DNA of 12,766 nucleotides, taken from assembly GCF_056746865.1 (NCBI RefSeq), contig NZ_JBWKMP010000007.1; one strand, given 5' to 3'. This document shows positions 1,154-12,766 of the stretch, piece after piece; the stretch's first letter is position 1, and each line of letters begins with the position of its first letter. Under the pieces are notes generated by a model. The model saw only the letters and a list, made by a program, of their open reading frames with translations. It was not told the origin of the DNA and did not search any database. This DNA is from a plasmid. The position numbers and the translations under genes were made by a program.

Positions 1154-2717
1154 ATTTCATGCCAGGGGAAAAGGTGGTGGCAGTGGTCCGGTTGATTACC
1201 TGCTGGGGAGGGAGCGTAACCGCGAAGGCGCAACGGTGCTTCAGGGTAATCCGGAAGAAGTCCGGGAACTCATCGATGCCACGCCATTTGCGAAGAAATA
1301 CACGTCAGGCGTTCTGTCGTTCGCGGAGAAGGAGTTGCCGCCGGGAGGACGTGAAAAAGTGATGGCGAGCTTTGAGCGCGTACTGATGCCAGGTCTCGAA
1401 AAGAATCAGTACAGCATCCTGTGGGTGGAGCACCAGGACAAGGGACGGCTTGAGCTGAATTTTGTCATTCCGAACATGGAGCTACAGACCGGAAAACGTC
1501 TCCAGCCGTACTACGACCGGGCAGACAGGCCGAGAATTGATGCCTGGCAGACGCTGGTGAATCACCATTACGGGCTGCATGACCCCAACGCCCCGGAGAA
1601 CCGCCGGATACTGACTCTCTCTGATAACCTGCCGGAAACGAAACAGGCGCTTGCTGAGAGCGTCACACGCGGGATAGACGCTCTTTATCATGTAGGGGAG
1701 ATAAAAGGCCGTCAGGATGTGATTCAGGCGCTCACAGAGGCGGGGCTTGAAGTGGTCAGGGTGACGCGAAGCAGCATCAGCATTGCAGACCCGAACGGCG
1801 GGAAGAATATCAGGCTGAAAGGAGCGTTTTATGAGCAATCTTTTACAGACGGGCGCGGAGTTCGAGAAAAAGCTGAAAGAGAGAGCCGAATCTACAGAGA
1901 AAGTGCTGAACAACGAGTTCAGGAGGCTCGGCGAATCTGTAAGCGAGGTTGTGACATCAAACGAGACGAAAATCAGAGACGCTATAGCCCTGTTCACAGC
2001 CTCGACAGAGGAATCGCTGGAGAAACACCGGGAAGGGGTGAAAGAGGCGATGAGGCAGCACAGGAAGGACGTGTTAAAGCTGGCAGGGAATACGGGCATG
2101 ATGTTACTGGGGATAGTCTTTCTCCTGTTTACCGCGAGTGGCGGGACGCTCTGGTATCTTGGCGGGAGGATACAGGCGAACCTGGAAGATATCAGGAAGC
2201 AGGAAGAGACATTGCAGAAACTGAACGCGAAGACATGGGGCGTGGAGTTCGTGCAGGACGGGAACAGGAAATTTCTGGTCCTTCCGTACGGGAAATCAGC
2301 AGAGGTGATTCCCTTTCAGGGGAAAGAGTGGGTACATCTGAAGGAGTGACACAGAGTGACAGAGCTGGAAACACATTTGCTGAACGCCTTAGAGCAGCTG
2401 CAACAGGACTATATGCAGCGGCTGAACGAATGGGAGAGCGCCTTCGTGGAATTGCAGAAGATGTTTTCGCTTACGCAACGGGACAACGCGATGCTGAACG
2501 AGCGGGTCATGCAGTTGAGTCAGCAGGTGCAGCACTTGAGCGAGCAGACAGAACACTTGAGCGAGCAGACAGAACACTTGAGCCAGTTATACAGCGAGAG
2601 CAGGAGATAAGGGACGAACTACTGATACAGGAACGTGAACATGAGCTATTCCTAGAGCGTGAGCGCCATCTGGAAATACAGGAACGGACACTGGATGGCC
2701 CGTCGCTGGGATGGTAA
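1143..2717 (+). CDS. mbeA: ColE1-type relaxase MbeA (MobA, HEN/MOB-P family)
   Basis: 524-aa ORF starting MIVKFHARGKGGGSGPVDYLLG with internal ATG at 1143, matching ColE1 MbeA from memory. Contains WVEHQDKGRLELNFV region. Overlaps mbeC 3' end by 11 nt. Confidence 0.9.
   Translation: MIVKFHARGKGGGSGPVDYLLGRERNREGATVLQGNPEEVRELIDATPFAKKYTSGVLSFAEKELPPGGREKVMASFERVLMPGLEKNQYSILWVEHQDKGRLELNFVIPNMELQTGKRLQPYYDRADRPRIDAWQTLVNHHYGLHDPNAPENRRILTLSDNLPETKQALAESVTRGIDALYHVGEIKGRQDVIQALTEAGLEVVRVTRSSISIADPNGGKNIRLKGAFYEQSFTDGRGVREKAERESRIYRESAEQRVQEARRICKRGCDIKRDENQRRYSPVHSLDRGIAGETPGRGERGDEAAQEGRVKAGREYGHDVTGDSLSPVYREWRDALVSWREDTGEPGRYQEAGRDIAETEREDMGRGVRAGREQEISGPSVREISRGDSLSGERVGTSEGVTQSDRAGNTFAERLRAAATGLYAAAERMGERLRGIAEDVFAYATGQRDAERAGHAVESAGAALERADRTLERADRTLEPVIQREQEIRDELLIQEREHELFLERERHLEIQERTLDGPSLGW
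1831..2349 (+). CDS. mbeB: Mobilisation protein MbeB, encoded in the +1 frame inside mbeA
   Basis: 172-aa ORF fully nested in mbeA in another frame, with a hydrophobic segment (MMLLGIVFLLFTASGGTLWYL). Same size and position as ColE1 MbeB as I recall it. Confidence 0.7.
   Translation: MSNLLQTGAEFEKKLKERAESTEKVLNNEFRRLGESVSEVVTSNETKIRDAIALFTASTEESLEKHREGVKEAMRQHRKDVLKLAGNTGMMLLGIVFLLFTASGGTLWYLGGRIQANLEDIRKQEETLQKLNAKTWGVEFVQDGNRKFLVLPYGKSAEVIPFQGKEWVHLKE
2356..2610 (+). CDS. mbeD: Mobilisation protein MbeD (about 9 kDa), nested in the 3' part of mbeA; GTG start
   Basis: 84-codon ORF beginning with GTG at 2356 directly after the mbeB stop (2347-2349). Coiled-coil-like sequence. Position and size match ColE1 mbeD from memory. 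Confidence 0.55.
   Translation: MTELETHLLNALEQLQQDYMQRLNEWESAFVELQKMFSLTQRDNAMLNERVMQLSQQVQHLSEQTEHLSEQTEHLSQLYSESRR
2533..2583. repeat. Perfect 21-bp tandem duplication (cacttgagcgagcagacagaa x2, plus 9-bp partial third copy) inside overlapping mbeA/mbeD
   Basis: Direct reading: units at 2533-2553 and 2554-2574, partial at 2575-2583. In frame in both genes (ERADRTL x2 in MbeA, EQTEHLS x2 in MbeD). Confidence 0.9.
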
Positions 2718-2825: not shown

Positions 2826-2961
2826 GGAACGCGTTAAAACGCATACGGACGCGTTTCTGGCGCTCAAAAACCATGGGGTTAGTGTGGGTAGTGTGTATAG
2901 CAACAGGAGCCTGGAACGCGTTCCGCTTCTTCTGTAATCGACGCCAGAATGCGTTTAATGC
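2826..2961. promoter_or_regulatory. Cluster of dyad-symmetric motifs (GGAACGCGTT x2 including perfect palindrome GGAACGCGTTCC; inverted pair gacgcgtttctggcgc / gacgccagaatgcgttt)
   Basis: Direct reading: ggaacgcgtt at 2826-2835 and 2913-2922; gacgcgtttctggcgc at 2848-2863 with inverted partner cgccagaatgcg at 2942-2953. Function unknown; may be protein-binding sites. Confidence 0.3.
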
Positions 2962-3100
2962 TTCTTCTGATGGTATCAGAGAGGAGCTGCTTGAGTTATT
3001 CCTGTTGGCCACAGAGCGTAATTATCTCCTTTTCAGATCCACACGGGGATACGTCAGAATCGGAACTGAGCAAGGATTACTGAAAGATACTGTTTGCCAG

Positions 3101-3125
3101 AAAAAAAATCCTCATACATGATGAG
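3101..3125 (-). terminator. Hairpin followed by T8 on the minus strand (candidate intrinsic terminator for minus-strand transcription leaving the AT-rich island)
   Basis: Plus strand aaaaaaaatcctcatacatgatgaggat: 8-bp stem atcctcat/atgaggat, 5-nt loop. The A8 run on plus becomes a U-tract after the stem on the minus strand. Confidence 0.45.
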
Positions 3126-3420
3126 GATAAAGTCTTAAAGGTCCATTCTATGGAGTGTCGGATTGAAAAATTTCTCCGGATGATATCCTTCACAGTTTAA
3201 ATGTGATTTCAACCATAAGTTTTTTATGGATTTTGTTAAATAAAAAAGAATTGAGTCGTGTTTCTGATATGTCTGAATATAATAAGTGAACAGTTATAAA
3301 ATAATTGTTTTATATTTATTGTGAGTTTGATGTTATGTTCTGCATAAATAACTGTAGTTTAGAATATTATTCTTTTATATTTATAGCTGTGAGATGATAA
3401 ATTATAAGTGTTCTTTGTGC

Positions 3421-3448
3421 TATAAAGAACCCCCCGTATAAGGGGGGG
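3421..3448 (-). terminator. C6/G7 hairpin (ccccccgtataaggggggg) with U-rich tail on the minus strand
   Basis: Stem 3430-3435 / 3442-3448. Minus-strand reading gives the stem followed by ttcttta. Confidence 0.35.
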
Positions 3449-3564
3449 TAAAAGATGGGTTTACTTCTTTTTAGTCCATGCCCTGGTGAGCTACATGAAG
3501 CTCGACACTACAGTAAAGATTTGCAGTTTTTTTGAACTTTACGCAAGCAATTTATTTACATTGT

Positions 3565-3593
3565 AAAGAAAACCCCCTCAATTCCGGAGGGGG
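3565..3593 (-). terminator. Hairpin ccccctc-aattccg-gaggggg with U-tract on the minus strand
   Basis: Stem 3573-3579 / 3587-3593. The plus-strand A-run 3566-3572 becomes ttttctt 3' of the stem on the minus strand. Confidence 0.4.
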
Positions 3594-3898
3594 AGTGTAG
3601 GGAAGTGCCTGATTTATTTTATGTACGCGCAAAAATGAGATAGCTTTTATTAGATATCATCAGCCCTGTCTGCATCAGTCAGCTCCTTACAGCGTCAGGA
3701 GTACTGATGAAGGGGGGGAACGTTCCTGCGTTTTTGCAAAGGCAATCCGGCTAGAGGCTTTACTACGCAGAAACATTCCGGACAACTTTTTACCCCAGTG
3801 TAACTTGTAGATCAACCAGATTTTGTTGCAGTAAAAATACAGTGGTTTCGAATTTGTAACATTTGTCACAAAAATAACATCAATATGTTGGTTTTCTG

Positions 3899-4490: not shown

Positions 4491-4721
4491 CCCGGTATCC
4501 CGCTCATGCTGGCGAACCCAGACACGCAGGGTCTCTGGCGTACAGCCAATCTTTGGAGCAATGGAACAAATTGCCGCCCATTGTGAGTCATATTCGCCCT
4601 GGCTTTCCAGAACCATACGAACTGCCCGTTGACGGACTTCGGGGGAAAAACGAGTATTTTTAGTCATCCTGTTTACATCTTTCTCAGGAAGTTTAGTCTC
4701 CAGGATTTCCGGGGCGGTTCA
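4491..4721 (-). mobile_element. 5' remnant of an IS3-family element (IS629/IS1203-like): terminal inverted repeat plus the first 59 codons of orfA, truncated
   Basis: Minus-strand ORF 4449..4667 begins [59 protein letters not shown], which matches IS629-type OrfA from memory, then diverges into an unrelated 13-aa tail. The reverse complement of 4690-4721 is the IS-end-like tgaaccgccccggaaatcctggagactaaac. Confidence 0.7.
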
Positions 4722-4949
4722 GTCCGGCAGAGATAAATTGCCACGGGAAGTTAGAGAAAAGTGCGGGAAAATGTCTTAAGAATGATTCTGGAAGAACGAA
4801 AAGTAAGAAGCGCAAAGGCTATGAGGGCAAAAGAGTATCGTGCCGCAGCGAATACTTTTACCTGGCAGCCTGTACAGCGCAGGTGAATAGACATTCCCCT
4901 GACTCATCCTGCTCCCCTTGGCGGCGAAGGGGATTAATCCCTATCCTGT

Positions 4950-5200
4950 AACTTCTATTTTGTGGAATCGAAAACAGCTGAAAATTGTGAAAAAAAACCG
5001 TTTCAGTCGTCTCAGTAAGGAAATTCGCTTGTGATTCACCTGGATGCATAGGTATGCATAAGGTTAAAATTTATCAGGCGCGATCGCGGTAGTTTTTCGG
5101 GGGGGTTGTTGCGATTTTTACCTGTCTGCTGCCGTGATTGCGCTGAATGCATTTCAGCGGTGCGTACAATTAAGGGATTATGGTAAATCCACTTACTGTC
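4950..5200. other. cer: cer-like multimer resolution site with XerC/XerD core ggtgcgtacaa-ttaaggga-ttatggtaaat at 5159-5188
   Basis: Core is identical to the ColE1 cer crossover site as I recall it. Upstream accessory region (gcataaggttaaaatttatcaggcgcgatcgcgg ...) also resembles cer, including paired tgcata half-sites near 5042-5060 (possible ArgR box). Confidence 0.7.
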
Positions 5201-5612
5201 TTCCCTCGTAGCCATCGAGATAAACCGCAGAAATCGTCTCAGCCAGCAGCCTGGATTTTTTCGGGGTAAGGTCTTTGCTGCGGTAATCAGTACCCGCAAA
5301 TTGAGTTGTGCCCCGGAGTGAGTTTAAAAATTCCTGGCTGTGAAACTGCTGAATGCGTTGCTGCACATCACTCCGTGATTTTCCTGTCGCTTTATCCTTT
5401 GCTCCCATATCCCAGAACTGCCGGAAAAAAGGCACCATCATTCGTGTTGTGTCGGCCTTCTGGGTGGAAAAGTTAGGATCAAAACCATCGTCTGATGCAT
5501 AAACGTAATGCCGGGTATGTTGTTCCACACTGCCCTTTGGCGTGCAGGCTGTCAGGACCGTTGCCGCTGTCAGCAGGGCGATAAGATACAGTGTGCCGCC
5601 GGAACGTCTCAT
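5193..5612 (-). CDS. Putative lipoprotein of unknown function (139 aa; signal peptide with lipobox LTAC)
   Basis: N-terminus MRRSGGTLYLIALLTAATVLTAC has a basic n-region, hydrophobic core and L-T-A-C lipobox. Mature protein is hydrophilic. I do not recognise the family. Confidence 0.55.
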   Translation of the reverse strand: MRRSGGTLYLIALLTAATVLTACTPKGSVEQHTRHYVYASDDGFDPNFSTQKADTTRMMVPFFRQFWDMGAKDKATGKSRSDVQQRIQQFHSQEFLNSLRGTTQFAGTDYRSKDLTPKKSRLLAETISAVYLDGYEGRQ

Positions 5613-5695
5613 GAGTGTCTCCTTACCTTTAAATCTTTGTACTCAGTGACTTATATTTAACCGCTGACTATCTTATCATCACTTGCAGTCGGTGC

Positions 5696-6133
5696 TCACC
5701 GGCTGAACAGTCTGGCCCAGAATCCCCGTTTTTTTTCCTGCTCCAGTGCCTGCCTGAGCTGCTCTATCTCTTTATGTAGCTGTTCCCGTTCGGCTTCCTG
5801 GCGCCGGCGTTCCGTAGCCTGTGCCTGTTTGTCCTCAAGCATCAGTGTCAGGCATTGTCTCAGCTCATTCAGCTCCCGGAGAATGCGTTCTGTCTGCTGA
5901 TCATGTGGATTTTCTGCCTGTCCCGCACTGTGCCTTTCTGGTGTCTCATCCTGCTTTAATTCGCCGTATGCCCGGATCAGTTCACTGGTTTCAAACTCCC
6001 GCCGTCCGTCCTGGCCTGTACGATAACTGACAAGGCCTGCGCGCATATCACGGTAAAACTGTGAACGCGATCTGCCTGTCATTTTCAGTGCGTTCTGGAG
6101 TGTGTGCCATGCCATGAAGTGACAGTGTCCCAT
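5696..6133 (-). CDS. Putative small DNA-binding protein with N-terminal helix-turn-helix-like segment and C-terminal coiled coil (start codon ambiguous)
   Basis: AWHTLQNALKMTGRSRSQFYRDMRAGLVSY looks like an HTH. C-terminus RRRQEAEREQLHKEIEQLRQALEQEKKR is a charged heptad-like helix. No strong RBS at any of the three candidate ATGs. Confidence 0.5.
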   Translation of the reverse strand: MGHCHFMAWHTLQNALKMTGRSRSQFYRDMRAGLVSYRTGQDGRREFETSELIRAYGELKQDETPERHSAGQAENPHDQQTERILRELNELRQCLTLMLEDKQAQATERRRQEAEREQLHKEIEQLRQALEQEKKRGFWARLFSR

Positions 6134-6281
6134 TAATGTCTCATATCATGGTTTCAGTAAAACATACTGGGGCCGGAGAACGGTAATGTTTGTGCTGGTT
6201 TTTGTGGCATCGGGTGGGAATAGCACGTGGTGTGGGTGGCTGTTTTTTTGATCGTTTTCACAAAAATGAAAATCCACAGGG

Positions 6282-6346
6282 TTGACAGGGAAAATGCAGC
6301 GGCGTAATTTTAAGCTGTATATAAAACCAGTAGTTATATATACAGT
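6282..6346 (+). promoter_or_regulatory. Colicin SOS promoter: -35 TTGACA (6282-6287), -10 TAATTT (6305-6310), tandem LexA boxes beginning CTGTATATAAAACCAG (6315-6330) and extending to 6346
   Basis: gctgtatataaaaccagtagttatatatacagta matches the dual CTGT-N8-ACAG LexA operator arrangement known for colicin E1-type promoters. RBS agagga lies 7 nt before the ATG at 6393. Confidence 0.8.
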
Positions 6347-6392
6347 ATATTGCTTTTAACTATTTGTTTTTAATGTCAAAGAGGATTTTATA

Positions 6393-7456
6393 ATGGAAAC
6401 AGCTGTAGCGTACTATAAAGATGGTGTTCCTTATGATGATAAGGGGCAGGTAATCATTACTCTTTTGAATGGTAATCCAGACGGGAGTGGCTCTGGCGGC
6501 GGTGGTGGAACTGGAGGTAGCAAAAGTGAAAGTTCTGCAGCCATTCATGCCACAGCTAAATGGTCTACTGCTCAATTGAAGAAAACGCAGGCAGAACAGG
6601 CTGCCCGGGCAAAAGCTGCCGCAGAAGCACAGGCTAAAGCAAAAGCAAACCGGGATGCGCTGACTCAACATCTGAAGGATATTGTGAATGAGGCGCTTCG
6701 TCATAATTCCACTCATCCGGAGGTTATTGACCTGGCTCATGCCAATAATGCAGCGATGCAGGCAGAAGCAGAGCGGTTGCGCCTTGCAAAAGCAGAAGAA
6801 AAAGCCCGTAAAGAAGCGGAAGCTGCGGAAAAGGCTTTTCAGGAGGCAGAACAACGACGCAAAGAGATAGAGAAGGAGCAGGCTGAAACAGAACGCCAGT
6901 TGAAACTGGCTGAAGCTGAAGAGAAACGGCTGGCAGCATTGAATGAAGAGGCCCGGGCAGTGGAGGTGGCACAAAAAAATCTTGCTGCTGCACAATCTGA
7001 GCTGGCGAAAGTGGATGAAGAGATTAAGACTCTCAATACCCGTTTAAGCTCCAGTATTCATGCCCGTGATGCAGAAATGAATACGCTGTCCGGAAAACGA
7101 AATGAGCTGGCTCAGGCATCTGCTAAATATAAGGAACTTGATGAACTGGTCAAAAAATTGTCACCAAGAGCTAATGATCCGCTTCAGAGTCGTCCTTTTT
7201 TCTATGCCACCAGTCGACGGACGGGAGCCGGTAAGATTATGGAGGAAAACAAAAACAGGTAACAGCATCAGAAACGCGTATTAACCAACTTAATGCTGAG
7301 ATAAATGGAATTCAGGGGGCTATGTCTCAGGCTAATAATAATCGTAATACAGCTGTTTTACGTGTTCATGAATCTGAAGAAAATTTGAAAACAGCGCAGA
7401 CTAATCTCCTGAACTCGCAGATTAAGGATGCTGTGGATGCAACAGTTAGCTTTTAT
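6393..7456 (+). pseudogene. cea: Colicin E1-type gene, 5' part (translocation and receptor-binding domains), with a 1-nt frameshift in an A-run (7246-7249) and truncated by the IS21-family insertion at 7456/7457
   Basis: METAVAYYKDGVPYDDKGQVIITLLNGNPDGSGSGGGGG... matches colicin E1 from memory. Frame 0 stops at 7260-7262; the colicin-like reading continues in the -1 frame (VTASETRIN...DAVDATVSFY) to 7456. Confidence 0.85.
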
Positions 7457-7658
7457 TGCAAAATGGCATCTGAATCGATCGCAGTTTGGCATTCGAATCG
7501 ATCATGATTTGGCATCCATCTCCGATCACAGTTTGGCATCACAATCGATCACGATTTGGCATGCTTCCGATCATTGATTGGCATCCTGCCAGTCACTCCG
7601 GGAATTAACTCTTTTCACCACAGTCTCCATTGCCGTGTTTAAACCAGTGGAGACGTCA

Positions 7659-9224
7659 ATGTCCAGAAAGAGAAAATCCAGGAGCACTATGGAAACCTGT
7701 TTTAAGATTCTTCAGCTCAAGTTCGACAAGAAGCTGACTAACCGTTGTATCGGACTGACGTTACACATCAGCGCCTCAACCGTTTTTGAGGTTCTTGCCC
7801 GCTTCAAAGCCTCTTCTCTGTCATGGCCATTACCTGCTGATATATCCCATGACACGCTGGAGAAACTCATTTTTCCGCCCAAAGACACCTTTGCATCAGA
7901 GCTTGTAATGCCTGACATGTTGTACCTCGATACGGAAATGAGAAAACCAGGTGTGACGCGGCAACTGTTGTGGATGGAATACAAGGCACAGGCGGGTAAC
8001 AAAGCGATGGGATACTCGCACTTCTGCCGTTGCTACCGGGAGTGGAAAAAAACGCGACGTCTCTCCATGCGCCAGGAGCATCGTGCCGGCGAAAAGCTTT
8101 TTATCGACTTCTGTGGTCCTACGGTTCCTGTTATTAATCCGGACACCGGTGAGATACGCCGCGTGGCAATCTTCGTGGCCGTAATGGGGGCGTCCAACTA
8201 TACCTACGTTGAAGCGTGCGAAGGTCAGGACATGATGTCATGGTTAAATGCCCACAGCCGTTGCCTGACCTTCCTGGGCGGCGTACCGAAGCTGCTCATC
8301 CCCGATAACCTCAGAAGCGCAGTGAAAAAGGCCGATCGATATGAGCCTGTCATCAACGACAGTTATCAGGCACTGGCTGAGCACTATGGCACGGTTATCA
8401 TCCCGGCCCGACCACGCAAACCTAAAGATAAACCAAAAGCAGAAAACGGCGTCCTCATCGTCGAACGATGGCTTCTTGCCCGCATCCGTAATGAAACCTT
8501 CCACACGCTCAGGGCGCTGAATGCGCGCCTTAGGGAGTTACTGACAGACATGAATAACCGGCCAATGAAGGGGTACGGCAATCAAACCCGTGCAGAACGC
8601 TTCCGCATACTGGATGCGCCAGCACTCTCTCCGCTGCCTCTGGCACCTTATGAATACACGGAATACAAAGCTGTGAAGGTTGGCCCTGACTACCACGTTG
8701 AATATGCCCGTCACTGGTACTCCGTTCCACACGAACTGGTCGGTCAGCGTCTGTCACTGAAGGCGGGGCAGTCGGTGGTACAGCTCTGGCACAAGGGGCA
8801 GTGTGTGGCGCAACATCCGCGCAGCACACATGAATATAAACACACAACCAATCCGCTTCACATGCCAGAGCGCCACCGGCAGCACGGGACATGGACACCG
8901 GAACGCCTGATCGAGCAGGGAAAACGTACGGGCCCGTCCACAGGCCGGGTGGTTGAATCCATGCTGAAGGCAAAACCCCATCCGGAACTGGCTTATCGTG
9001 CAGTTCTGGGGCTGCTGGCACTTCAGAAAAAATACGGCCCGGAACGGCTGGAAAAGGCCTGTTACGTTGCCCTGCACTATAACGCCCCTGACAGACGCTT
9101 TATCGACAATCTGCTGCGTCACCATCGGGAGAACCTGGAGCTTCCATTATCCCGCCAGGGCGAACAACATCCGGCATATGCTTCAGAGCATGAAAACCTG
9201 CGTGGTCCGGGCTACTACCACTGA
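7659..9224 (+). CDS. istA: IS21-family transposase IstA (521 aa)
   Basis: Long ORF with a DDE-type integrase core and the IstA-typical layout; followed 16 nt later by istB. ATG at 7659 preceded by ggag. Confidence 0.85.
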   Translation: MSRKRKSRSTMETCFKILQLKFDKKLTNRCIGLTLHISASTVFEVLARFKASSLSWPLPADISHDTLEKLIFPPKDTFASELVMPDMLYLDTEMRKPGVTRQLLWMEYKAQAGNKAMGYSHFCRCYREWKKTRRLSMRQEHRAGEKLFIDFCGPTVPVINPDTGEIRRVAIFVAVMGASNYTYVEACEGQDMMSWLNAHSRCLTFLGGVPKLLIPDNLRSAVKKADRYEPVINDSYQALAEHYGTVIIPARPRKPKDKPKAENGVLIVERWLLARIRNETFHTLRALNARLRELLTDMNNRPMKGYGNQTRAERFRILDAPALSPLPLAPYEYTEYKAVKVGPDYHVEYARHWYSVPHELVGQRLSLKAGQSVVQLWHKGQCVAQHPRSTHEYKHTTNPLHMPERHRQHGTWTPERLIEQGKRTGPSTGRVVESMLKAKPHPELAYRAVLGLLALQKKYGPERLEKACYVALHYNAPDRRFIDNLLRHHRENLELPLSRQGEQHPAYASEHENLRGPGYYH

Positions 9225-9240
9225 CAGAAGGAACAACAGT

Positions 9241-9996
9241 ATGAGTGATAACCTGTTAAACAAACTGACCCAACTGAAACTCCCGGCGATGGCCGGGAGC
9301 CTGATACGGCAGCGGGAAACGCCTCAGACCTACGACGAACTGTCGTTCGAGGAAAGGCTGACGCTGCTGGTTGATGACGAGCTTCTGAGCAGGGAAAACA
9401 GCCGTGTGGCACGGTTGAGAAAAAATGCCGGCCTGAAATACCAGGCAACACCGGAAGGGCTGCGCTATCCGGCCTCAAGAGGTCTGCGGGCTGAACAGAT
9501 GAGAGAACTGCTGAACGGCCACTACATAACCCACAGGAAAAACCTGCTGATAACCGGTCCGACAGGATGTGGCAAGAGCTGGATAGCCAATGCGCTGGGC
9601 GAACAGGCATGTCGACAGAAACACAGCGTCCGGTACTGTAGAACCGGGCGATTACTGGAACAACTGGCTCAGGGACGTGTTGATGGCAGCTGGCTGAAAT
9701 ATCTGAAACAGTTGCAAAAAATACAGGTTCTAATCCTGGACGATCTGGGGCTGGAACAGTTAAGTAACGCCCAGTGTAATGACCTTCTGGAGCTCATAGA
9801 GGATCGTTACGGACAAAGCAGCACGATAGTGGTAAGCCAGTTCCCGGTAGATAAATGGCATGGTCTGATGGAGAACCCAACAACAGCAGATGCCATCCTG
9901 GACAGACTGGTACATAACTCACACCGGGTGGTCCTTCAGGGAGAGTCACTGAGGAAAAATCCCCCGGTAGTGGAAAGCAGCGAAAAAACGCGTTAA
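9241..9996 (+). CDS. istB: IS21-family helper ATPase IstB (251 aa)
   Basis: Walker A GPTGCGKS and Walker B VLILDDLG motifs. RBS gaagga upstream of the ATG at 9241. Confidence 0.9.
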   Translation: MSDNLLNKLTQLKLPAMAGSLIRQRETPQTYDELSFEERLTLLVDDELLSRENSRVARLRKNAGLKYQATPEGLRYPASRGLRAEQMRELLNGHYITHRKNLLITGPTGCGKSWIANALGEQACRQKHSVRYCRTGRLLEQLAQGRVDGSWLKYLKQLQKIQVLILDDLGLEQLSNAQCNDLLELIEDRYGQSSTIVVSQFPVDKWHGLMENPTTADAILDRLVHNSHRVVLQGESLRKNPPVVESSEKTR

Positions 9997-10095
9997 AAAG
10001 CGGTAGAAAAAGTTAAGTTCCCGGTTGATCGAATGGATGCGAATCGCTGATCGGACTTCGATGCCAATCCGTGATCGAATAGAGCGGAATACGCA

Positions 10096-10593
10096 CTTTT
10101 ATCAAACGCTATCTGAAAAATATGGTGAAAAATATTCAAAAATGGCACAGGAACTTGCTGATAAGTCTAAAGGTAAGAAAATCAGCAATGTGAATGAAGC
10201 TCTAGCTGCTTTTGAAAAATACAAGGATGTTTTAAATAAGAAATTCAGCAAAGCAGACCGTGATGCGATTTTCAATGCACTGGAATCGGTTAAGTATGAA
10301 GACTGGGCTAAGCATTTAGATCAGTTTGCTAAGTACTTGAAGATTACGGGACATGTTTCTTTTGGATATGATGTGGTATCTGATATCCTAAAAATTAAGG
10401 ATACAGGTGACTGGAAGCCACTATTTCTTACATTAGAGAAGAAAACTGTAGATGCTGGAGTTAGTTATATTGTTTTAGTGTGCTTGCTGGAACTACATTA
10501 GGTATCTGGGGGATTGCTATTGTTACAGGCATTCTATGTGCCTTTATTGACAAGAATAAACTTAATACTATAAATGATGTGTTGGGTATTTAA
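10096..10593 (+). pseudogene. cea: Colicin E1-type gene, 3' part (pore-forming domain), carrying a roughly 10-nt deletion/frameshift near 10473 in the hydrophobic helical hairpin
   Basis: [28 protein letters not shown]...[20 protein letters not shown] matches the colicin E1 channel domain from memory. Frame stops at 10499-10501; the remaining C-terminus ([35 protein letters not shown]) is in another frame ending at 10591-10593. Confidence 0.8.
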
Positions 10594-10931
10594 TTATTCT
10601 TTATTGATATAAACAGTCCTAGCAATCCAAATGGGATTGCTAGGACCAAACAAAGTAGATTGTATAGCATAAATAGGTTTAATTTTGCCACGGGGGCATT
10701 ATTTAGATTTTTTCTTTTTCTGAAAAAATCTTTCTTTATGAACTTAAAAAATATGTGTTCAATAGCATATTTTGAATATGGGCATAGAATAGTGCTTATC
10801 ACGATTGCGTATAGCATCTTATCTGACGCTAGGAAATAATACCCTTCGTTGTTTTTTGTTATAAGGTATATATATATAAGTGTGCAATATAGGCCAAACA
10901 AAATGTTTTTTATGTAGTATCTTAAACTCAT
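10590..10931 (-). CDS. imm: Colicin E1 immunity protein (113 aa, integral membrane), intact
   Basis: [113 protein letters not shown] matches ColE1 Imm from memory. Convergent with cea. Confidence 0.9.
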
Positions 10932-10978
10932 AAATTAAACCTCGTTATATATTCTTTTCATTTTATAAGGATCGAGTT

Positions 10979-11040
10979 ATGAGGAAAAGATTTTTTGTGG
11001 GAATATTAGCTATAAACCTCCTTGTTGGATGTCAGGCTAA
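10979..11040 (+). pseudogene. kil: Colicin lysis (release) lipoprotein gene, 5' part (MRKRFFVGILAINLLVGCQA...), interrupted by IS5 after codon 20
   Basis: RBS taagga; signal peptide with lipobox LVGC as in ColE1 Kil. Reading frame enters the IS5 end at 11041. Confidence 0.8.
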
Positions 11041-12235
<1,195 letters not shown>

Positions 12236-12315
12236 CTAACTATATACGTGATGTTCAGGGAGGGACTGTGGCTCCATCATCTTCTTCTAAACTGACGGGG
12301 ATCTCTGTTCAGTAG
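12236..12315 (+). pseudogene. kil: Colicin lysis lipoprotein gene, 3' part (...[25 protein letters not shown])
   Basis: Continues the kil frame across the CTAA duplication; stop at 12313-12315. Confidence 0.8.
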
Positions 12316-12370: not shown

Positions 12371-12766
12371 GTAAACGAAAAAACCGCCTGGGGAGGCGGT
12401 TTGATCGAAGGTTAAGTCAGTTGGGGAACTGCTTAACCGAGGTAACTGGCTTCAGCAGAGCGCAGATACCAAATACTGTCCTTCCAGTGTAGCCGTAGTC
12501 GGGCCACTACTTCAAGAACTCTGTTGCACCATTTGCGCCATCATCGCTCTGCTAACCAAGTTACCAACGGCTGCTGCCAGTGGCGCTTTGTCGTGTCTTA
12601 CCGGGTTGGACTCAAGACGATAGTTACCGGATAAGGCGCAGCGGTCGGGCTGAACGGGGGGTTCGTGCACACAGCCCAGCTTGGAGCGAACGACCTACAC
12701 CGAACTGAGATACCAACAGCGTGAGCTATGAGAAAGCGCCACGCTTCCCGAAGGGAGAAAGGCGGA
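12371..12766 (+). ncRNA. RNAII: RNA II replication primer precursor, 5' portion (continues into 1-about 160 if circular)
   Basis: Homology by eye to the ColE1 RNA II 5' region, with stem-loops such as ccgcctggggaggcgg (12384-12399). Downstream sequence is near-identical to pMB1 (ggtaactggcttcagcagagcgcagataccaaatactgtcctt...). Confidence 0.75.
12372..12479 (-). ncRNA. RNAI: RNA I antisense copy-number control RNA (about 108 nt)
   Basis: Complement of the first roughly 108 nt of RNA II. The minus strand begins acagtatttggtatctgcgctctgctgaagccagttacc as in pMB1 RNA I, and ends in a stem-loop plus U-tract (complement of aaaaaaccgcctggggaggcgg). Confidence 0.7.

Follow-up and report, generated by a model that had tools for sequence, protein, structure and literature searches.

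A probable ISSso4 isoform in the colicin E1 gene of a small mobilizable plasmid of the ColE1 type

The colicin E1 gene (cea) of a small plasmid is split by a segment whose two ends carry tandem repeats, which raises the questions of what the segment is, how it came to lie in cea and what it did to the gene. The window, meaning the whole stretch of DNA that was analysed, is a complete ColE1-type plasmid of 12,766 bp. An earlier note, made from the sequence of this plasmid, had read the segment as an apparently intact IS21-family element, probably inserted recently and potentially still active. Our comparisons make it nearly certain that the colicin E1 gene of this small mobilizable plasmid received an intact ISSso4 isoform by transposition. 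The coordinates of the element and of its surroundings are collected in Table 1.

A complete IS21-family element and its terminal repeats

The segment encodes IstA and, directly downstream, IstB, with 16 bp between the stop of istA and the ATG of istB and with no internal stop in either gene. Both proteins score above the NCBIfam thresholds, which are curated cut-offs: IstA matches NF033546 (IS21 transposase) at 285.7 bits against a cut-off of 160, and IstB matches NF038214 (IstB helper) at 257.8 bits against a cut-off of 200. The Pfam domains rve and Mu-transpos_C_2 are found in IstA, and IstB_IS21 (PF01695) is found in IstB at 1.2e-60. Both also align to structures from IS5376 of Geobacillus stearothermophilus, the structural model of the IS21 family, at distant homology (IstA to 8b4h/8q4d, E about 1e-14; IstB to 8q3w/5bq5, E about 1e-24). 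The catalytic residues D140, D206 and E252 of IstA align with the motifs of IS5376 IstA, while IstB contains a Walker A motif (GPTGCGKS, residues 106-113) and a Walker B motif (D167/D168). These results uphold the earlier description of uninterrupted istA and istB genes.

The element begins with TGCAAAATGG and ends with GGAATACGCA, and thereby carries the TG...CA termini of the IS21 family. Its terminal repeat units are 22-24 bp long, and Tandem Repeats Finder assigns them a period of 23. The motif TGGCAT-N5-8-GATC matches five times on the plus strand at 7464-7572 and once on the minus strand at 10049-10066, and nowhere else in the 12.7-kb window; these six matches compare with an expectation of 0.14, and none of 200 shuffles reached six. 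The repeats at the right end are the more degenerate, and only R2 matches the strict motif, yet R1 and R3 still end in ...CGATC and stay in the 22-24-bp register. In the 96.2%-identical copy from Shigella sonnei, L1 to early L5 are unchanged and L6 carries three changes. Repeats in the IS21 family are spaced by 23 bp, two of them are required, and the end is a 3′-CA (PMC10122671); here, each end likewise holds multiple direct repeats spaced by about 23 bp. By analogy, L1-L6 are predicted IstA binding sites.

The motif counts and the Tandem Repeats Finder period confirm that both ends carry repeats at intervals of about 23 bp, as the earlier note had described while warning that the array could be mistaken for a CRISPR-like one. 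Tandem units of about 23 bp that share a conserved core could indeed suggest that the array is CRISPR-like or iteron-like and has nothing to do with the IS. In a CRISPR array, however, the repeats are parted by unique spacers of similar length and cas genes usually lie nearby, whereas the units here abut without spacers and no cas-like ORF occurs in the 12.7-kb plasmid. The start of the array coincides exactly with one end of the IS, its units recur in inverted orientation at the opposite terminus, and the array accompanies the IS to every other site. Nor does the window contain an iteron-using replication initiator, its replication being of the ColE1 type (RNAI at 12375-12477, with a rop gene). 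An array unrelated to the IS is thus vanishingly improbable, and we read the repeats as the ends of the insertion sequence.

Table 1 Features of the insertion locus (window coordinates)
Feature	Position	Strand	Remarks
cea promoter, -35	6283-6288		LexA boxes ~6315-6345
cea 5′ part	6393..7456	+	up to codon 355; duplicated bases encode Ser-Phe-Tyr
Target-site duplication, left copy CTTTTAT	7450..7456	.	single heptamer in the empty sites of NZ_CP135675.1 (2849-2855) and NZ_CP128975.1
IS21-family insertion sequence, ISSso4 isoform (named by proxy), complete	7457..10095	+	2,639 bp, 5′-TG...CA-3′
Left terminal repeat array, putative IstA binding sites	7457..7596	+	five or six units, L1-L6
Left-array units L1, L2, L3	7457-7480; 7481-7503; 7504-7527	+
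Left-array units L4, L5, L6	7528-7550; 7551-7572; 7573-7596	+	L6 degenerate
istA, DDE transposase	7689..9224	+	511 aa; PGAP start; alternative in-frame ATG at 7659
istB, AAA+ helper ATPase	9241..9996	+	251 aa; NCBIfam and Pfam matches
Right terminal repeat array	10027..10095	-	inward order: R1 10095-10073, R2 10072-10049, R3 10048-10027
Target-site duplication, right copy CTTTTAT	10096..10102	.	directly outside right end
cea 3′ part, pore-forming domain	10096..10593	+	10-bp deletion between 10472 and 10473

The element resembles IS5376 and IS21 in its istA-istB operon, its TG/CA ends and its direct repeats of about 23 bp, as well as in an IstA with a DDE core and a Mu-transposase-like C-terminal beta-barrel and in an AAA+ IstB. 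It differs from IS5376 in the size of IstA (511 residues against about 400), which here has a C-terminal extension of ~120 residues without a Pfam match, and in the number of repeats, which is two per end in IS5376 but five or six (left) and three (right) here. The duplications also differ, being 4-7 bp here and 5 bp for IS5376 in vitro (PMC10122671). If the steps known from the IS21 family apply, IstA would bind the 23-bp-spaced terminal repeats (L1-L5/L6 and R1-R3), and an IstA tetramer would pair both ends and cut at the terminal 3′-CA. The AAA+ ATPase IstB would bind and remodel the target DNA and then recruit and activate IstA, after which staggered strand transfer and repair would leave the 7-bp CTTTTAT duplication. 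Three points are inferences: that IstA binds the repeats, what the additional repeats do, and that the element is active today.

Insertion into an already damaged colicin gene

The empty site is preserved in two IS-free sister plasmids. In alignment, positions 1-2855 of the 8,910-bp plasmid NZ_CP135675.1 (L004) correspond to 4603-7456 of the window and positions 2849-3803 to 10096-11040, with the seven bases at 2849-2855 occurring once in that plasmid and twice in the window. The uninterrupted junction GCAACAGTTAGCTTTTATCAAACGCTATCTG is found exactly in the 8,899-bp plasmid NZ_CP128975.1 (L002) as well. That CTTTTAT stands only once in these IS-free sisters proves both the insertion and the 7-bp target duplication. 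Target-site duplications in the IS21 family measure 4-8 bp, and the 7 bp at the cea site is a short duplication of this kind. The interval proposed earlier, 7450-10102, is exact to the base and comprises the IS together with both copies of the clean cttttat duplication, which the two empty sites substantiate. With its ORFs, termini, repeats and duplication in place, the element is the intact IS21-family member that it had appeared to be.

Two of the 12 other copies inspected (L001 and L005) are without a clear duplication, and some copies sit in rearranged contexts, as might be expected had the IS come by homologous recombination or in a larger composite structure, with the CTTTTAT flanks a coincidence. 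At this insertion point, however, the extra sequence in the window relative to NZ_CP135675.1 and NZ_CP128975.1 is exactly the IS plus 7 bp, and the sequence on either side is collinear with the colicin gene. A 7-bp match of the flanks would arise by chance with p ~6e-5. We give a coincidental duplication next to no credence and retain transposition as the explanation.

The placement inside cea given in the earlier note also stands, the interrupted gene being a colicin E1 allele that is ~90-92% identical to the colicin E1 chains 2i88 and 6wxh, as counted from printed alignments. The A-run at 7246-7249 has lost 1 bp, which leads to a premature TAA at 7260-7262. The IS-free plasmid NZ_CP128975.1 has the same 1-bp deletion and the same junction of the 10-bp deletion in the 3′ part of the gene. 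Judged by this comparison, cea was already a pseudogene before the IS inserted. Since the frameshift and the 10-bp deletion are common to IS-free relatives, the IS is not the cause of colicin loss, and because these lesions predate it, the insertion was probably neutral.

The plasmid carries RNAI/rop, mbeA-D, exc1/exc2 and the cea-imm-lysis genes, with the lysis gene interrupted by IS5. Its likeness to the 8.9-kb ColE1-type colicin E1 plasmids is close, the backbone sharing 99.4-100% identity with NZ_CP135675.1 in its individual segments and, overall, 99.7% with NZ_CP128975.1. The plasmid is set apart from them by two insertions, of ISSso4 into cea and of IS5 into the lysis gene, and by a tandem duplication of 21 bp in the mob region, a combination for which no record was found in PLSDB or among complete E. 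coli genomes.

Name of the element and its copies elsewhere

We had suspected the element to be ISKox3, which is known from IncX3 NDM plasmids. This identity was rejected, as ISKox3 belongs to the ISL3 family in a published IS table and pCT has ISKox3 and ISSso4 separately. By the ISfinder rule, an isoform shares at least 95% nucleotide identity with its reference. ISSso4 is the IS21-family ISfinder entry from Shigella sonnei, and the copy in S. sonnei pMHMC-001, used as a stand-in for that reference, is 96.2% identical to the element at the nucleotide level. PGAP labels both IstA and IstB of the S. sonnei copy as ISSso4 family; the product name of IstA here is only 'IS21 family transposase', while the S. 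sonnei IstA receives an ISSso4-specific name. A 100%-identical copy in pCE1867-A has been named ISSso4 (PMC9319951). The name ISSso4 rests on the PGAP labels, this one paper and the identity to the stand-in copy, and by these proxies the element is an ISSso4 isoform. By the same comparisons, it is an already known, catalogued IS21-family insertion sequence.

The S. sonnei copy is 2,638 bp long against 2,639 bp here, with a like gene order and terminal array. The left ends agree for 106 bp from the terminus, the right ends differ at one base, and the copy in the S. sonnei plasmid also has a 7-bp duplication. The two differ at 100 nucleotides, at 13 of 511 residues in IstA and at 7 of 251 residues in IstB. 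It is the isoform found here, not the S. sonnei type, that is 100% identical across IncI, IncX3, IncF and IncHI2 plasmids.

Full-length copies with 100% identity occur in at least 25 plasmid records among the matches listed, and 232 plasmid records cover at least 80% of the element. At least five genera have copies, including Escherichia, Klebsiella, Salmonella and Atlantibacter, and a near-full copy is present in 225 of 5,426 complete E. coli genomes. An exact scan with 47 bp of the left end in a set of one genome per species gave 0 matches, and that set gives no information on host range. Identical copies lie on chromosomes as well as on the four plasmid types, and the 12 others inspected occupy 11 distinct sites. 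Ten of these, at nine distinct sites, have duplications of 4-7 bp (7, 7, 6, 6, 6, 6, 5, 5, 5 and 4 bp), the 4-bp duplication being that of two plasmids with one shared IncX3 site. One further copy has a doubtful 3-bp duplication (L001) and one has none (L005), and simple insertion would not hold for every copy.

The cea::IS junction itself was found neither in PLSDB (whole-window query) nor in the complete E. coli genomes (600-bp junction query), collections that do not include the source record. This unmatched junction, the identical copies at different sites and the 99.7%-identical IS-free sisters fit the earlier suggestion of a recent and potentially active element, and recent activity is plausible. 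Alternatively, the element could be a dead relic that looks intact but is transpositionally inactive and plasmid-borne by vertical inheritance only. When 7300-10250 was scanned for promoters and terminators, no sigma-70 consensus site emerged within the element, as might be the case for a relic; the scan found no plus-strand terminator either and is uninformative on istAB expression. In a transposition-capture experiment, moreover, an ISSso4-carrying plasmid yielded ISApl1 events only (PMC9927407). A relic is nevertheless very unlikely, given that the two ORFs are intact, as are the catalytic motifs, that identical copies occupy at least 11 sites on unrelated replicons, most with a duplication of their own, and that the junction is unmatched while the IS-free sisters are so nearly identical.

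Decay of the colicin operon and possible SOS read-through

The colicin operon may have been dismantled in steps, with cea affected by the frameshift, the 10-bp deletion and the ISSso4 insertion and the lysis gene by IS5; the genes for immunity, mobilization and exclusion are intact. ISSso4 lies in the orientation of cea. The cea promoter, which is under LexA control and appears intact, is ~1.1 kb upstream of it, and no plus-strand terminator was predicted between that promoter and the element. With the same orientation and no intervening terminator, SOS induction could transcribe istAB by read-through. The left array, whose five or six repeats make it unusually long (two are enough in IS5376), might be an operator that damps such read-through. 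A loose LexA-box pattern is not enriched in the window (7 matches against 4.8 expected), and one of its matches is at 6315-6330, where the SOS boxes of colicin E1 are expected. Taken jointly, an 'immunity-only' ColE1 derivative with a stepwise-dismantled colicin operon and SOS-coupled transposition of ISSso4 is a speculative and rather unlikely reading. If it were true, DNA damage would be coupled to transposition of ISSso4, with a multicopy, mobilizable plasmid as its launch pad.

The significance of the locus is slight beyond correct annotation. The split colicin ORFs are best annotated as a single cea pseudogene, and the 23-bp array belongs to the IS ends and should be called neither CRISPR nor iterons. 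The plasmid illustrates how a colicin operon can decay step by step without losing immunity. As for the element, its identical copies on IncI, IncX3, IncF and IncHI2 plasmids come from animals, food and people, and this isoform of ISSso4 therefore appears to be spreading now.

Anatomy and identity of the element

The interval 7450-10102 reads CTTTTAT, TGCAAAATGGCAT ... GGAATACGCA, CTTTTAT. It is exactly the insertion sequence (IS) plus both heptamers, as the earlier note had placed it, and the element begins with TG and ends with CA, as DDE elements typically do. Two long plus-strand ORFs fill it. The first runs over 7578-9224 in a mechanical ORF list, with a further in-frame ATG at 7659; we adopt the PGAP start of the identical gene (table). 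The istA-istB gap is 16 bp (window 9222-9240), with no overlap. IstA scores 285.7 bits on the NCBIfam model 'IS21 family transposase' (cut-off 160) and IstB 257.8 bits on 'IS21-like element helper ATPase IstB' (cut-off 200), bearing out the anticipated similarity. Pfam assigns IstA the rve domain and a Mu-transposase C-terminal barrel; IstB matches IstB_IS21 (1.2e-60). Both proteins can be aligned with structures from IS5376, the structurally solved model element (IstA, 8b4h/8q4d; IstB, 8q3w/5bq5). The IstA DDE triad, D140 (FIDF), D206 (IPDN) and E252 (KAEN), lines up with that of IS5376, and IstB has a Walker A motif, GPTGCGKS, at 106-113 and Walker B at D167/D168. IstA residues ~388-511, an extension of ~120 residues past the Mu-transposase-like barrel, gave no Pfam match.

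PGAP labels IstB 'IS21-like element ISSso4 family helper ATPase', and both proteins of a copy on a Shigella sonnei plasmid (L017) bear the ISSso4-specific name. L017, which has its own 7-bp duplication (CTCAGGC), is 96.2% identical to the window element, with 100 differences, and differs at 13 of 511 IstA and 7 of 251 IstB residues. The usual ISfinder rule places elements in the same isoform at 95% identity; judged against L017 as a stand-in for the ISfinder reference, the window element would thus be an ISSso4 isoform.

Five tandem occurrences of the strict motif TGGCAT-N5-8-GATC lie at 7464-7572 and a single inverted one at 10049-10066, with none in the rest of the window; six occurrences compare with 0.14 expected, and 0 of 200 shuffles reach six. 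Tandem Repeats Finder returns a period of 23, and parsing inward from each terminus gives five or six units on the left and three on the right, in agreement with the ~23-bp repeats reported earlier at both ends. The window element and L017 agree at every one of the outermost 106 bp on the left (L1 to early L5) and differ by one base in the right-end array; this conservation supports a function for the outer repeats. L6, with three changes including TGGCAT to TGGAAT, may be vestigial. A CRISPR or iteron array was rejected: the repeats have no spacers, start at the IS terminus, are mirrored at the other end and travel with the IS, and replication is of the RNAI/rop type.

Features of the window and segments aligned to the IS-free plasmid L004
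Feature	Position	Strand	Remarks
Element proper	7457-10095		2,639 bp
CTTTTAT heptamers	7450-7456, 10096-10102		abut both element ends
L1	7457-7480
L2	7481-7503
L3	7504-7527
L4	7528-7550
L5	7551-7572
L6	7573-7596		degenerate
R1	10095-10073		TGGCAT core degenerate; CGATC end and register kept
R2	10072-10049
R3	10048-10027		TGGCAT core degenerate; CGATC end and register kept
istA	7689-9224	+	511 aa; ATG 7689
istB	9241-9996	+	251 aa
IS5	11041-12235		1,195 bp, complete
IS5 duplication, CTAA	11037-11040, 12236-12239
mbeA relaxase	1095-2717
RNAI	12375-12477	-
Aligned segment	1-4602		L004 4331-8910
Aligned segment	4603-7456		L004 1-2855
Aligned segment	10096-11040		L004 2849-3803
Aligned segment	12236-12766		L004 3800-4330

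Insertion into a decaying colicin gene

The whole window is 99.5-99.7% identical to 8.9-kb ColE1-type plasmids. The layout of its alignment to one of them, L004 (NZ_CP135675.1, 8,910 bp), shows that the 12,766 bp of the window are the whole of a circular plasmid, that the element inserted exactly, duplicating L004 2849-2855 (CTTTTAT), and that a second insertion is present. The heptamer is single in the empty sites of L004 and of a second IS-free sister, L002 (NZ_CP128975.1), where the uninterrupted target GCAACAGTTAGCTTTTATCAAACGCTATCTG is also found, which confirms the proposed 7-bp duplication. Arrival by recombination beside a chance repeat is ruled out by the gap of exactly 'IS plus 7 bp' relative to these empty sites.

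The second insertion is IS5, with 100% identity to copies of that element in E. coli genomes and a 338-aa transposase that reaches 365 bits against the IS5 model of NCBIfam. It disrupts the colicin lysis (release) gene (start at 10979), and L002 and L004 both have the site empty. The plasmid also carries rop, mbeB/D, exc1/exc2 and cea-imm-lysis; all but colicin and lysis are apparently intact, and the layout looks immunity-only. A 21-bp perfect tandem repeat, CACTTGAGCGAGCAGACAGAA (2.4 copies, window 2533-2583), has one unit more than in L004, an in-frame 7-codon duplication in the overlapping mbeA and mbeD frames. In the 8.9-kb relatives, the sequences at the two ends of the window adjoin each other.

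Alignment of the intact 521-aa L004 protein to colicin E1 structures gave E 2e-112 for the channel domain (2i88) and E 3e-98 for the N-terminal domain (6wxh), with identities of roughly 90-92% counted from printed alignments. These matches identify the interrupted gene as a colicin E1 allele, and the name cea was correctly given. The insertion point follows codon 355; Ser-Phe-Tyr, encoded by the duplicated bases, lies where the pore-forming domain begins. Relative to L004, cea has lost one A in the run 7246-7249, creating TAA at 7260-7262, and has a 10-bp deletion between 10472 and 10473, in the pore domain. Both lesions are shared with IS-free 8,899-bp plasmids, among them L002, for which no colicin CDS is listed. 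Since L002 has the lesions together with both empty sites, it is most parsimonious that the small deletions came first and the IS insertions afterwards; insertion into an existing pseudogene was probably neutral.

Copies elsewhere and transposition history

At least 80% of the element is covered in 232 plasmid records, and each of the 25 among the matches listed is identical across its entire 2,639 bp (100%). The element is found in hosts such as Escherichia, Klebsiella, Salmonella, Shigella, Enterobacter and Atlantibacter, and of 5,426 complete E. coli genomes, 225 contain it nearly in full and 1,775 contain at least a fragment. We read the duplications at twelve other 100%-identical copies, in 11 distinct sites on IncI, IncX3, IncF and IncHI2 replicons. 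Their length is variable: 7 bp (GTACCGC, CCAAGGG), 6 bp (GGCAAC, ATCAAA, CTTGTA, CCACAC), 5 bp (GTAAC, ACAGG, CCTGG) and 4 bp (AAGC, at one IncX3 site in two plasmids), a range that includes the 7 bp of the window. One copy has a doubtful 3 bp (CTG; NZ_CP023144.1) and another none (pCE1867-A, NZ_CP094826.1); the lack of a convincing duplication at these two sites suggests that a neighbouring stretch was deleted or that copies recombined there.

Identical copies over 11 distinct sites argue that this exact sequence has transposed recently and repeatedly, and with so many of them at differing sites the element is unlikely to be an inactive relic. Coverage of the window stays below 80% in every PLSDB record, and the cea::IS junction is absent from complete E. 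coli genomes, an absence that fits a recent insertion.

Proposed mechanism and relation to the IS21 family

In the IS21 family, the terminal inverted repeats are built from several direct repeats (L1/L2, R1/R2) 23 bp apart; IstA requires the terminal 3'-CA together with two repeats in full, and an intertwined IstA tetramer bridges two supercoiled ends (PMC10122671). The AAA+ protein IstB is described as a regulator with two roles, target-DNA binding and IstA activation (PMC11208146). As the anatomy fits the family point for point, the window element would use the same mechanism, with its repeats as putative IstA-binding sites. The cea promoter and overlapping LexA-box region (6283-6345) look apparently intact, with a G-to-A change relative to L004 at 6332, inside the second LexA box. 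Because istAB lies ~1.1 kb downstream of this SOS-type promoter region in the orientation of cea, and no plus-strand terminator is predicted from 7300 onward in the scanned stretch, read-through is conceivable; speculatively, DNA damage could drive istAB expression.

Compared with IS21 and IS5376, IstA is longer (511 versus ~400 aa, with the unannotated C-terminal extension), terminal repeats are more numerous and the duplication is variable (4-7 bp). These modest peculiarities are not novel within the IS21 family at large. The element is already catalogued and shows every sequence-testable feature that defines the family. The interpretation as an IS21-family insertion in cea is supported overall, and the main value of the result is correct annotation of the plasmid.
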